28,227 nt of DNA from a virus (lineage: Duplodnaviria; Heunggongvirae; Uroviricota; Caudoviricetes): positions 1 through 28,227 of the IMG/VR virus record IMGVR_UViG_3300045988_125232; one strand, written 5' to 3'. Below, one piece after another: positions 3,464 to 9,255 of the stretch. The notes under the pieces are model-generated. The model saw only the letters and a program-made list of their open reading frames with translations, had not been told where the DNA came from and searched no databases. Positions within the stretch are counted from its first letter, which is position 1. The number at the start of each line of letters is the position of its first letter. The position numbers and the translations under genes are program-made.

Positions 3464-4060
3464 TTAATGATTGTCGTAATAATTAATTGGCTCATCATTT
3501 TTTTGGTCTGGCATAGTTATGGACCACTTTATATTCTTTAGGCTGTTATGTTTTTTATTGACCTTAAGCTCTCTCTTTGCTTCAGAGATAATATCGTCTA
3601 GTAATACTTTTAATTTATCAAGTCTTGACTTGTGGGCATCTATCAACTCTATACTATCAAACTCCCATTGTATAAATAGATTTTCTTCATTTTCAATGAA
3701 TGAACGGATTTTATCCCCACACTCTTCTGTTAAGAATAATGAAGATAGCTCACCTATTCTACTGAGTTTTTCAAGCTCATTAGAGAAAGATTTGCTAAGG
3801 ATTTCATTTTCTTCTTTTGATTTGTAACTAAAGTAGGTTGGGAATTGTGAAGCGTGATGTAACTCATGTTTATACCAATAGTCAGCTGTGTTTTTTAGAA
3901 GATAAACACAGTCAACTAATTGCGTATACAAATCTATTCTTTTGTCCCACCATTTTTCTTTATAATAACGGCCGAGTGCATATCGCGCAGTTAAGTAAGC
4001 TGCGATTGAGCCTGTAACAAGTCCGATAATTACCTTTGATATAAGGTCATGCCAATCCAT
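3464..4060 (-). CDS. Membrane-anchored protein of unknown function (moron; candidate lysogen-expressed exclusion or abortive-infection factor)
   Basis: 198-aa ORF with one N-terminal hydrophobic helix (VIIGLVTGSIAAYLTA), then a charged, Lys/Glu-rich helical body. Visibly AT-rich compared with flanking phage genes, with its own AT-rich upstream region and its own terminator. Confidence 0.7.
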   Translation of the reverse strand: MDWHDLISKVIIGLVTGSIAAYLTARYALGRYYKEKWWDKRIDLYTQLVDCVYLLKNTADYWYKHELHHASQFPTYFSYKSKEENEILSKSFSNELEKLSRIGELSSLFLTEECGDKIRSFIENEENLFIQWEFDSIELIDAHKSRLDKLKVLLDDIISEAKRELKVNKKHNSLKNIKWSITMPDQKNDEPINYYDNH

Positions 4061-5546: not shown

Positions 5547-6116
5547 ATGAGGCTAATCGTGGGTAAGCATCACTGGAAAATAGAAAAACAGCCTGAGTGG
5601 TACGTGAAAGCTGTCAGAAAAACTATCGCGGCGTTGCCGGGTGGTTACGCTGAAGCGGCTGACTGGCTCGATGTAACAGAAAACGCTTTATTCAACCGCC
5701 TTCGTGCAGATGGCGATCAGATTTTCCCGCTGGGATGGGCAATGGTTTTACAGCGTGCTGGTGGCACTCACTTCATTGCTGATGCTGTGGCGCAGTCTGC
5801 AAATGGCGTCTTTGTGTCTCTTCCTGACGTCGAGGATGTGGACAACGCCGATATTAACCAGCGTCTGCTGGAAGTCATTGAACAGATCGGCAGTTATTCA
5901 AAACAGATTCGTTCAGCAATCGAAGACGGTGTAGTGGAACCGCATGAGAAGACAGCAATTAACGACGAGCTGTATCTCTCAATTTCGAAGCTGCAGGAGC
6001 ATGCAGCACTTGTCTACAAAATTTTTTGCATTTCAGAAAGTAATGACGCCCGCGAGTGTGCAGCTCCGGGCGTCGTGGCGTCGATTGCTTCTGGTTGTGG
6101 AGAAACTAACGCATGA
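5547..6116 (+). CDS. Putative CII-like / YdaT-like early regulatory protein (189 aa)
   Basis: Position immediately downstream of cro, same strand; assignment by synteny only. Confidence 0.5.
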
Positions 6117-6291
6117 ACAGTTTAACAACACACTACCGTCGCTCGCAACTGATTGCGCTTCCTGTACCGGGTGGAAAAGCGAAGGTGGAATATTGCTATG
6201 CAGTGAATGTACCAGGTGACAGGGAAATTGTAACCCACAGCTTTGCAGAGTGGGCTGTGGGTGATTTCAACCGGCAGAAGGAGACAGTCCT

Positions 6292-6471
6292 TTGCGACAA
6301 GTTAACCGCTGGTTCAAAGATCACTACGGAGTACCCGTCAGAGTCATTCGTTGGGAGCCGGAAACACAACGGGTTATCTACCTCCGCGAAGACTATGAGC
6401 ATGAGTGCTTCAGCCCGCTCGAACAGTTTCGTCGTAAATTCAGGGAAATAGAGGTCGGTCATGAGCACTAA
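6292..6471 (+). CDS. Small protein (59 aa, TTG start) translationally coupled to the replication gene
   Basis: AAGGAG ribosome-binding site 8 nt upstream of TTG; its stop overlaps the ATG of the next gene. The product (…[35 protein letters not shown]…) is more protein-like than the serine-rich tail of the overlapping 112-aa ORF. Confidence 0.35.
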
Positions 6472-7402
6472 ATTAACCGGCTATGTATGGGATGGTTGCG
6501 CTGCGTCAGGCATGAAATTATCCAGCGTGGCAATTATGGCCCGCCTGGCTGATTTCAGTAATGACGAAGGTGTGTGCTGGCCATCAATTGAAACCATTGC
6601 CCGTCAGATTGGCGCGGGGATGAGTACCGTCAGAACGGCTATCGCACGGCTGGAAGCAGAAGGCTGGTTAACGCGTAAGGCGCGTCGCCAGGGTAACCGC
6701 AATGCGTCGAATGTTTATCAGCTTAACGTTGCGAAGCTTCAGGCAGCGGCATTTTCTCAACTGTCAGATTCTGACCCGTCAAAATCTGACGCATCAAAAT
6801 CTGACCCGTCAAAATTTGATGCGTCGAAATCTGGCAAAAAAGCGGGTTTTCACCCGTCAGAATCTGGCGGGGATCCGTCAGTAAAATCAAAACATGATCC
6901 GTCAGATAAAAAAACTTCTCGTCCGGACGCTTCGCAACCGGACACGCAGACGGCTGAACAGGAGTTTTTAACTCGCCATCCTGATGCGGTTGTATTCAGC
7001 CCTAAAAAGCGCCAGTGGGGAACGCAGGATGATTTGACCTGCGCACAGTGGCTCTGGAAAAAAATCATCGCCCTGTACGAGCAGGCCGCCGAATGTGACG
7101 GCGAGGTGGTTCGTCCCAAAGAACCGAACTGGACAGCCTGGGCAAACGAAATTCGCCTGATGTGTGTGCAGGATGGTCGTACTCACAAACAAATCTGCGA
7201 GATGTACAGCCGCGTCAGCCGCGATCCGTTCTGGTGCCGTAACGTGCTCAGCCCGTCGAAGCTGCGGGAAAAATGGGATGAGCTTTCCCTGCGCTTATCG
7301 CCGTCCGTCAGCACGTACACCGAAAAACGCGAAGACCCGTACTTCAAAGCCAGTTACGACAACGTGGACTACAGCCAGATCCCGGCAGGATTCAGGGGGT
7401 GA
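6461..7402 (+). CDS. Replication initiator (O-like, N-terminal winged-helix DNA-binding domain)
   Basis: 313-aa ORF with an N-terminal HTH typical of phage/plasmid replication initiators (…WPSIETIARQIGAGMSTVRTAIARLEAEGWL…); a repeat-encoded low-complexity linker (DPSKSDASKSDPSKFDASKS) overlies DNA iterons. Confidence 0.8.
   Translation: MSTKLTGYVWDGCAASGMKLSSVAIMARLADFSNDEGVCWPSIETIARQIGAGMSTVRTAIARLEAEGWLTRKARRQGNRNASNVYQLNVAKLQAAAFSQLSDSDPSKSDASKSDPSKFDASKSGKKAGFHPSESGGDPSVKSKHDPSDKKTSRPDASQPDTQTAEQEFLTRHPDAVVFSPKKRQWGTQDDLTCAQWLWKKIIALYEQAAECDGEVVRPKEPNWTAWANEIRLMCVQDGRTHKQICEMYSRVSRDPFWCRNVLSPSKLREKWDELSLRLSPSVSTYTEKREDPYFKASYDNVDYSQIPAGFRG
6761..6845. repeat. Iteron array inside the replication gene (putative origin)
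   Basis: At least four tandem 15-bp units (TCTGACCCGTCAAAA, TCTGACGCATCAAAA, TCTGACCCGTCAAAA, TTTGATGCGTCGAAA), with further CCGTCAG repeats and A-rich tracts out to about 6905. Confidence 0.6.
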
Positions 7403-7404
7403 TC

Positions 7405-7893
7405 ATGAGTCTTTTGAATGAAGTTCAGAAATACATTGAAGCCCATCCGGGGTGTACTTCCGGAGACATTGCGGATGCTTTTGCAGGTTACTCACGGCAG
7501 CGCGTTCTGCAGTCAGCAAGCAAGTTACGTCAGAGTGGTCGTGTGGCTCACCGTTGTGAAGGGGATACACGCAGACATTTCCCGCGCCTGACTGAGAGAG
7601 CGCAGGAGGCGGAACCGCAACCAGTTCGTGAAACCAGACCTGTGCGCAATTTCTATGTCGGCACTAACGACCCGCGGGAGATTTTGTGCCTGACCCGCCA
7701 GGCGGAAGAACTGGAGTCCAGGGGCTTATACCGTCGTGCTGCAACGGTGTGGATGGCGGCATTCCGTGAAAGCCACTCCCAGCCAGAACGAAACAATTTT
7801 CTGGCGCGTCGTGAGCGGTGCTTACGGAAAAGCAGCAAGCGCGCTGCATCGGGTGAAGAGTGGTATCTGTCAGGGAATTACGTGGGGGCTTAA
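7405..7893 (+). CDS. Regulatory protein with a PerC-like C-terminal domain
   Basis: The C-terminal segment AEELESRGLYRRAATVWMAAF matches the conserved PerC/Pch core as I recall it; the N-terminal 60 aa look like a small HTH. AGGGGG ribosome-binding site 5 nt before the ATG (an alternative GTG start lies at 7399). Confidence 0.6.
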   Translation: MSLLNEVQKYIEAHPGCTSGDIADAFAGYSRQRVLQSASKLRQSGRVAHRCEGDTRRHFPRLTERAQEAEPQPVRETRPVRNFYVGTNDPREILCLTRQAEELESRGLYRRAATVWMAAFRESHSQPERNNFLARRERCLRKSSKRAASGEEWYLSGNYVGA

Positions 7894-8546
7894 TGAGTAA
7901 TAAATATTGCCAGGCGCTGGTGGAACTGCGGAACAAACCAGCCCATGAACTGAAGGAAGTGGGCGATCAGTGGCGCACGCCGGACAACATTTTCTGGGGA
8001 ATTAACACCCTGTTTGGCCCGTTTGTTCTGGATCTGTTCACTGACGGTGATAACGCCAAATGTGCCGCGTATTACACGGCGGAAGACAACGCGCTGGCGC
8101 ATGACTGGTCAGAACGTCTTGCGGAGCTTAAAGGTGCTGCCTTTGGTAATCCCCCATACAGCCGCGCCAGTCAGCATGAGGGGCAATACATCACCGGCAT
8201 GCGTTACATCATGAAGCATGCCAGTGCCATGCGTGATAAAGGCGGGCGCTATGTTTTCCTGATCAAAGCTGCCACCAGCGAAGTGTGGTGGCCGGAAAAT
8301 GCAGATCATATTGCTTTTATTCGCGGGCGTATTGGTTTTGAACTGCCTGTCTGGTTTATCCCGAAAGACGAGAAGCAGGTACCGACAGGCGCTTTCTTCG
8401 CTGGTGCTATTGCTGTTTTCGACAAGACCTGGAAGGGACCGGCAATCAGCTACATCGGGCGCGATGAACTTGAGGCATGTGGTGAGGCCTTTCTGGCGCA
8501 GGTTCGCCAGCAGGCGGAAAAACTGGTCAGGGAGATGGCGGCATGA
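7893..8546 (+). CDS. Phage DNA N6-adenine methyltransferase (Dam-type)
   Basis: Catalytic NPPY motif (FGNPPYS) with size and context typical of lambdoid orphan methyltransferases. ATG overlaps the upstream stop (TAATG); an alternative GTG start lies at 7860. Confidence 0.85.
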   Translation: MSNKYCQALVELRNKPAHELKEVGDQWRTPDNIFWGINTLFGPFVLDLFTDGDNAKCAAYYTAEDNALAHDWSERLAELKGAAFGNPPYSRASQHEGQYITGMRYIMKHASAMRDKGGRYVFLIKAATSEVWWPENADHIAFIRGRIGFELPVWFIPKDEKQVPTGAFFAGAIAVFDKTWKGPAISYIGRDELEACGEAFLAQVRQQAEKLVREMAA

Positions 8547-8869
8547 CGACGTTAACTCAATGCCAGCAGCAGGTGCTGGATATGCTGATTTCTTACCAGA
8601 AAGAGCGTGGCTTTCCGCCAACCAATCAGGAGGTGGCAACCATGCTGGGATATCGTTCAGTGAATGCAGCGGTGGAGCATCTTCGCGCACTGGAGAAAAA
8701 AGGCGTCATCACGATAAAGCGTGGTGTGGCCCGGGGGATAACGCTTCATACCGCGGTGAAGGACGACGACAGCGAGGCGGTCGGGATTATCCGCTCACTG
8801 CTTGCCGGTGAGGAAAACGCCAGGCTGCGTGCAGCCCACTGGTTACATGAGAGGGGTCTGAAAGTATGA
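8543..8869 (+). CDS. LexA-like DNA-binding-domain protein lacking the autopeptidase domain
   Basis: Residues 1-70 align well with the LexA N-terminal winged helix (QQQVLDMLISYQKERGFPPTNQEVATMLGYRSVNAAVEHLRALEKKGVI...RGI-L). There is no S24 domain; a short helical tail follows. Confidence 0.75.
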   Translation: MTTLTQCQQQVLDMLISYQKERGFPPTNQEVATMLGYRSVNAAVEHLRALEKKGVITIKRGVARGITLHTAVKDDDSEAVGIIRSLLAGEENARLRAAHWLHERGLKV

Positions 8870-9255
8870 AGCTGATTCTGCCTTTCCCGCCCAGCGTGAA
8901 CACGTACTGGCGACACCCCAACAAAGGGGCGTTTGCAGGTAAGAGCCTGATAAGCGCGGCGGGGCGCAAATTCCAGAGCGCGGCGTGTGCAGCAATAGTT
9001 GAGCAGTTACGTCGTCTGCCAAAACCAACGTCGGCACCTGCTTCAGTGGAGATCGTGTTGTTTCCTCCGGATAACCGGATCCGCGATCTGGACAACTATA
9101 ACAAGGCGCTGTTTGACGCCCTGACCCACGCGGGTGTGTGGGAAGACGACAGTCAGGTGAAAAGAATGCTGGTGGAGTGGGGACCGGTTATCCCGGAAGG
9201 GAAGGTCGAGATCACTATCAGTAAGTACGAGAAAACGGCGGGTGCAGCCGCCTGA
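8866..9255 (+). CDS. rusA: Holliday-junction resolvase RusA
   Basis: 129-aa ORF with RusA signatures (LPFPPSVNTYWRH ... RDLDNYNKALFDALT...W.DD), at the usual nin-region position. Confidence 0.9.
   Translation: MKLILPFPPSVNTYWRHPNKGAFAGKSLISAAGRKFQSAACAAIVEQLRRLPKPTSAPASVEIVLFPPDNRIRDLDNYNKALFDALTHAGVWEDDSQVKRMLVEWGPVIPEGKVEITISKYEKTAGAAA

Follow-up and report, generated by a model that had tools for sequence, protein, structure and literature searches.

yfdN of a lambdoid prophage encodes a two-domain PerC-family protein and lies directly after the replication initiator gene

The open reading frame at 7405–7893 (+) of the window, by which we mean the whole 28,227-nucleotide stretch of viral DNA that was analysed, is yfdN of an SfV/SfIV/ST64B-type lambdoid prophage, and its product is a two-domain member of the PerC family. 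Its context shows that yfdN is an optional cassette, that it opens the nin-equivalent region, and that it is translationally coupled within the early-right (PR-type) operon. By analogy with its short relatives, we give a probability of about 0.5 to the reading that YfdN is a DNA-tethered PerC module that would alter H-NS-type silencing, or a partner regulator, on prophage induction. That yfdN belongs to the PerC family was already known from the RefSeq and PHROGs labels and from the EHEC literature; the small additions made here are a winged-helix plus TPR-like model of the protein, the recognition that the C-terminal half of short PerC proteins is missing, an invariant map position, and evidence against moron and replication roles.

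The DNA of the reading frame is 99.6–99.8% identical to RefSeq genes annotated "yfdN: PerC family transcriptional regulator", and 157 of 164 residues (96%) are identical in its K-12 orthologue, YfdN of CPS-53. Of 5426 complete E. coli genomes, 2668 carry the gene, as do 49 phage records, those of SfIV, mEp460, Stx2c phages and some Stx2a phages included; the Stx2a and Stx2c phages of O157 are among the carriers. An exhaustive search of 1.84 billion representatives yielded 104 clusters of YfdN relatives, with E. coli, Shigella, Salmonella, Enterobacter, Citrobacter and Hafnia as named sources of the family. Many of these clusters are of proteins of 140–165 aa that align end to end at 25–47% identity, and the two-domain architecture is that of an old, diversified subfamily. 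In earlier work yfdN was named "the K12 unique PerC homologue" and was deleted from a ler-lacZ reporter strain (PMC5931665), and overexpression of K-12 yfdN gave a glycogen-deficient phenotype, one of 58 found among 4123 clones (PMC2853380). Our literature search found no paper assaying YfdN itself, and the UniProt and EcoCyc entries label it uncharacterised.

The surrounding DNA is that of a known prophage: positions 397–25000 of the window match at ~100% a prophage that several strains carry at tRNA-Thr, beside proA. Compared with the prophage of strain 0H26, only five positions differ between 397 and ~27500. Two of the five (7784 and 7788) lie inside yfdN, and amount to P129 here versus Q and one synonymous change; of the two forms, K-12 has that of the window. 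Positions 1–396 contain a run of short repeats rich in GATGG/GATGT. They do not match the proA/tRNA-Thr junction flanking the near-identical prophage in 0H26 and others, and this prophage copy therefore has a different left flank.

Two start codons can be considered for yfdN. Translation from the ATG at 7405 to the TAA stop at 7891–7893 gives a protein of 162 aa, and translation from a GTG at 7399 (open reading frame 7399–7893, +) gives the 164-aa form of the RefSeq and K-12 models. The ATG appears the more likely start, because a Shine-Dalgarno sequence, AGGGGG, lies at 7394–7399 (+), 5 nt before it, because homologues down to 25% identity start with MSL in the family alignments, and because an AGGGGG/AGAGGA-spacer-ATG junction recurs in distant homologous loci. 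The AGGGGG doubles as the last two codons (R-G) of the tail encoded by the preceding initiator gene, which stops with the TGA at 7400–7402. The first-pass annotation of this DNA had placed the gene at 7405–7893, which stands as the 162-aa frame from the ATG; the length of 164 aa that it gave for those coordinates does not, and belongs to the GTG start.

That annotation had also recognised a PerC/Pch-like core at AEELESRGLYRRAATVW (residues 102–118 in 164-aa numbering, nt 7702–7752) and had named a profile search against the PerC family as the way to check it. The search was positive, with a match much stronger than chance would give: the Pfam PerC model (PF06069) scored 36.2 bits (E = 7.4e-9), the gathering cut-off being 22.6, over residues 98–149 of the 162-aa form (100–151 of the 164-aa form; nt 7696–7851), the match covering only positions 5–56 of the 90 in the model. 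PHROG 1324 ("transcriptional activator") matched the full length of the protein (residues 1–161, E = 4.8e-77), and separate PHROGs exist for its N half and its C half. In profile comparisons with hhalign, the YfdN family matched a 104-aa Pch-type protein with a probability of 96.3% (E = 1.7e-9), PchE of O157 Sakai with 96.4% (E = 1e-9) and an IncF-plasmid PerC-family protein with 96.6%. Two NCBIfam models stayed below threshold: ANR_neg_reg (NF033650) reached 23.4 bits on residues 96–142, where the cut-off is 32, and a MarR-type model (BilQ) aligned with residues 10–69.

YfdN is nevertheless not a full-length PerC domain, by which we mean a protein of ~90–104 aa with an N-terminal core and a C-terminal half corresponding to Pfam positions 57–90. 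The C-terminal half is present in the Pch, PchE and IncF homologues and absent from YfdN. Instead, YfdN shows every feature of what we call the YfdN-type subfamily: a winged helix-turn-helix, a linker, a PerC core and a WxLxGxxxG tail. Its 162 or 164 aa make it longer than typical PerC, as had been noticed before; among the short members, PchE of O157 Sakai measures 90 aa and one Pch-type protein 104 aa, while the Pfam model is 90 positions long.

To describe this architecture we modelled the protein with AlphaFold2 on a 36-sequence alignment (mean pLDDT 76; residue numbers are those of the 164-aa form). The earlier suggestion of an HTH-like region fused to the PerC core is borne out in the model by a predicted winged helix-turn-helix at residues 5–62 (7411–7584, +), composed of helices at 5–15, 21–27 and 33–46 and beta strands at 49–54 and 57–62 with pLDDT 72–84. 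It is followed by a variable, predicted-disordered linker at residues 63–91 (7585–7671, +), with pLDDT <50 for 65–81 and with indels and low conservation in the family alignments. The PerC core (7672–7830, +), which contains AEELESRGLYRRAATVW, is predicted to form three TPR-like helices at residues 92–108, 111–124 and 128–144, with pLDDT >90, after which comes a short terminal helix. The protein ends in a tail, ...EEWYLSGNYVGA (7852–7890, +; family consensus W-x-L-A/S-G-x-x-x-G), that stands where short PerC/Pch proteins have their C-terminal half. The N-domain is basic in all 36 members of the alignment (mean net charge +5.25, pI ~10), which fits nucleic-acid binding without proving it, and the order of winged helix, linker and PerC core is kept down to 25% identity across the Enterobacterales.

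Structural searches added little to the model. A PDB sequence search with YfdN found no homologue; a single-sequence AlphaFold2 model compared with the PDB by Foldseek gave weak MIT/TPR matches only, and is superseded by the alignment-based model; and a search of BFVD gave generic MarR/ArsR matches only. The winged-helix fold predicted for the N-domain is shared with MarR/ArsR/MecI-type regulators, but YfdN has neither their dimerisation helices nor their ligand domain and scores far below the cut-offs of those families.

The position of yfdN in the phage genome is that of an early-operon gene. The window carries, in order, an S24 repressor gene on the opposite strand, a cro-like gene, a CII-like (CP76) gene, a DUF4222 gene, the replication initiator gene and yfdN, after which come genes for a Dam methyltransferase, a LexA-DNA-binding-domain-only protein, RusA, a KilA-N protein and a DUF968 protein, and then Q. 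The placement in the nin region proposed earlier thus holds, with yfdN as the first gene after the initiator and before Q. It overlaps both neighbours: upstream, in the arrangement GTGA...ATG, at the stop of the initiator gene (6461–7402, +; N-terminal HTH_36, lambda O-like C-domain, tail ...IPAGFRG), and downstream in TAATG, where its stop overlaps the ATG of the gene for a phage N6-adenine DNA methyltransferase of the Dam family (7893–8546, +). No promoter-like or terminator-like site was found on the + strand from ~6100 to 9250, and the GC content of yfdN, 55%, is the same as that of its neighbours.

A YfdN-like gene directly follows the initiator gene in 10 of 10 loci, namely the window and nine others drawn from six sequence subgroups. 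The same position holds after three or four unrelated initiator types, including the Phg_2220_C and SfV types, and is kept even where YfdN is only 25–33% identical or where the methyltransferase is of the MT-A70 kind. In the isolated phage mEp390 the initiator ends in the same tail, the downstream genes are the same, and a methyltransferase is absent; translation of mEp390 in six frames yielded no YfdN-family reading frame (best E 0.61 against the family HMM, compared with 3.8e-71 for the window). We conclude that yfdN is dispensable and an optional cassette, which is what is expected of a nin-region gene. The methyltransferase gene is optional independently of yfdN, as SfIV shows: in SfIV and many E. 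coli prophages yfdN is followed directly by the LexA_DNA_bind gene, with no methyltransferase.

Several observations concern the neighbours of yfdN. The slot after the gene (7893–8546) is swappable, being occupied by a Dam-family gene here, by an MT-A70 gene elsewhere and by nothing in SfIV; at one locus (L013) it holds a gene for a 250-aa protein without a Pfam match. The 108-aa protein encoded at 8543–8869 (+) comprises nothing but a LexA DNA-binding domain (Pfam LexA_DNA_bind, 69 bits), the S24 cleavage domain being absent, and is conserved in every related phage examined, mEp390, SfIV and SfV among them; it could be a non-cleavable LexA-like binder of SOS boxes. A 198-aa reading frame at 3464–4060 (−), between the early-left genes and the repressor gene, had no match in PADLOC, which returned nothing meaningful for YfdN either. 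A 112-aa reading frame at 6113–6451 (+), upstream of the initiator gene, had no Pfam or PADLOC match, and RefSeq calls a DUF4222 reading frame in another frame there.

The initiator gene itself has two features of note. Inside it, at 6749–6871, lie six tandem 15-bp iterons (consensus TCTGACCCGTCAAAA, with internal dyads GTCAGATTCTGAC) that coincide with a low-complexity DPSKSDASKSD linker of the protein and that probably are the phage origin, analogous to the lambda origin inside gene O. At its end (7331–7402) it encodes a conserved tail, ...N-(T/V)-D-Y-x-x-(I/V)-P-(A/P)-G-F-R-G, that is common to initiators whose N-terminal and central regions are unrelated (HTH_36/lambda-O-like, Phg_2220_C, SfV type and DUF1376 YdaU). 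Besides the window, the tail is seen in loci L004–L016, L010, L017 (ydaU) and L025 (mEp390), and the C-terminus of lambda O (...NTDWIYGVDL) is related to it. The tail also occurs in phages without YfdN and is not specific to YfdN carriers.

Comparison with characterised relatives sets out what YfdN shares with them and what it lacks. PerC of the EPEC plasmid pEAF and PchA, PchB and PchC of EHEC prophages have a homologous core, A-E-x-L-E-x-(K/R)-G-L-(Y/W)-R-R-A-A-x-x-W...R-R-x-x-C, and like YfdN are carried on mobile elements of Enterobacterales. However, these short proteins are of 90–104 aa, with the core at residues 5–57 and a conserved C-terminal half (..L.EIK.AV.R...ELGM..), whereas YfdN has a winged helix and linker before the core, lacks the C-terminal half and ends in WYLSGNYVGA. 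Furthermore, the pch genes are accessory genes with transcription of their own, whereas yfdN lies inside a phage early operon. PchE (ECs_1588) has a PerC core like that of YfdN and is transcribed in a polycistronic early transcript of its own mobile element (PMC7369912). By experiment PchE is a repressor of csgD and curli and a regulator of flagella, with minimal effect on ler (PMC6265319, PMC7369912). Unlike YfdN it is 90 aa long without a winged helix, and since it also sits in the Sp7 satellite of O157 Sakai we rejected it as a YfdN-type protein. The ANR family (Aar, Rnr and Cnr; NF033650) provides a small helical module that aligns with residues 96–142 of the YfdN core, but ANR proteins are <10 kDa, single-domain and paired with AraC-type activators, and the YfdN score lies under the family cut-off; with a two-domain protein of 162 aa and such a score, we rejected membership of that family. 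Lambda Ren (PHROG 142) has the same map position, being the first small gene after the replication genes with a 4-bp overlap with the preceding gene, and aligns weakly but in register with the HTH-like N-domain of YfdN; it has no PerC core, and homology of the N-domain to Ren is not supported (PHROG 142 E 0.0024, hhalign probability 1.9%).

On the reading that we prefer, yfdN would be made on prophage induction or infection and not in the stable lysogen, because of its position in the early-right operon under repressor control. The winged helix would bind DNA, and the PerC core would be a protein-binding module, as is suggested by its relatives Pch and ANR/Aar, for which such a role has been described. 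At the sites bound, YfdN would then alter nucleoprotein silencing of the H-NS/StpA/Hha type or the action of a partner transcription factor, and any effect on host genes, positive or negative, would follow from this activity rather than from a function dedicated to activating ler. In particular, Pch activates LEE1 only by relieving silencing by H-NS, StpA, Hha and YdgT, and lowers H-NS binding at LEE1 (PMC4764244), and ANR proteins work through protein–protein contacts with AraC-type regulators and H-NS (PMC4038620, PMC5570504). The weak match of the YfdN core to the ANR model also counts for this analogy-based mechanism, and the glycogen-deficient overexpression phenotype counts as perturbation of the host by K-12 yfdN (PMC2853380). 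Against it counts the absence from YfdN of the C-terminal half (Pfam positions 57–90), a half that Pch may require in order to act. The effects of short PerC homologues vary: PchA, PchB and PchC activate ler, PchD and PchE hardly do (PMC5931665), PchE represses csgD (PMC6265319), and a PICI homologue represses LEE1 (PMC11773190). Transfer of function to YfdN is therefore unsafe, and by these analogies the sign of any YfdN effect would be unpredictable.

The reading most directly suggested by the family name, and close to that of the first-pass annotation, is that yfdN is a lysogenic-conversion moron, that is, a PerC/Pch-like activator expressed in the lysogen that switches on host virulence regulons such as ler and the LEE. 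Membership of the PerC family, the activation of LEE1 by PchABC and PerC (PMC5931665, PMC4764244) and the presence of yfdN in Stx2a and Stx2c phages of O157 are in its favour, but we regard it as unlikely. Lying in a repressor-controlled early operon, where it overlaps the genes on either side, yfdN has neither a promoter nor a terminator to itself, and with a GC content equal to that of its neighbours it is not AT-rich; this context argues against yfdN being a typical lysogen-expressed, AT-rich virulence moron. Moreover, YfdN is without the C-terminal half of Pch, ler is scarcely affected by the non-group-1 homologues PchD and PchE (PMC5931665), and the MG1655 ler-lacZ strain, from which yfdN was deleted as a precaution only, gives no evidence of activation. 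The gene is also common in K-12, Salmonella, Enterobacter, Citrobacter and Hafnia, which are not generally known as carriers of the LEE. Rather doubtful, too, is a reading in which YfdN is an ANR-like anti-activator or repressor whose core binds and inactivates an AraC-family regulator and/or H-NS, causing repression. It can draw on the ANR_neg_reg match, on the binding of AggR-type regulators and H-NS by ANR proteins (PMC4038620, PMC5570504), and on a PerC-annotated PICI protein, EcCIMP1_025, that silences LEE1 and has been suggested to be ANR-like (PMC11773190). However, the ANR score falls short of its cut-off whereas the PerC score exceeds its own, and no AraC-type gene of the kind with which the small, single-domain ANR proteins are paired lies near yfdN. 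This reading and the preferred one differ mainly in the sign of the effect.

Two further readings confine YfdN to the phage. Because yfdN always directly follows a single initiator gene with a 4-bp overlap, it occupies the slot of lambda P, the helicase loader, and could encode a replication accessory that docks on the initiator tail and recruits DnaB. Genes for P, DnaC or DnaB-like proteins are absent from these phages, the C-domain of the window initiator is lambda O-like, the tail ...NxDY...IPAGFRG is common to unrelated initiators, and terminal peptides are often bound by TPR-like folds. Two natural controls largely refute this role, which we rejected as highly improbable: the Rac initiator YdaU has the tail ...IPPGFRG and is followed by the DnaC-like YdaV, without YfdN, and mEp390 has the same initiator tail with no YfdN-family reading frame in any frame. 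YfdN also resembles P and DnaC neither in sequence nor in fold. Alternatively, YfdN could control the adjacent orphan DNA methyltransferase, in the manner of a C protein, or phage late genes only, with no role in the host. A Dam or MT-A70 gene lies directly downstream in most loci with an overlap of 1–4 bp, even where YfdN is 25–33% identical. An obligatory pairing is contradicted by SfIV and many E. coli prophages, which have yfdN without a methyltransferase, and was rejected; in L013, too, the next gene has no methyltransferase Pfam match. We consider control of the methyltransferase or of late genes alone to be distinctly unlikely.

As a gene, yfdN is ordinary, being already annotated and very common; its domain layout offers a concrete handle on how the PerC core works. 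We tentatively suggest, as a possibility drawn from analogy, that YfdN-type proteins may be the first PerC members with a DNA-targeting domain of their own, in which the winged helix would tether the TPR-like PerC module to specific sites, and that SfV/ST64B/Stx2c-type lambdoid phages may use YfdN soon after induction to remodel silencing complexes of the H-NS/Hha type, be it on phage or on host DNA. If this is true, the PerC core would in general be a protein-binding adaptor and not a DNA-binding activator, and about half of complete E. coli genomes (2668/5426) would carry an induction-dependent anti-silencer or silencer. An effect of YfdN on H-NS-controlled genes at prophage induction would, moreover, bear on virulence regulation under SOS-inducing antibiotics.
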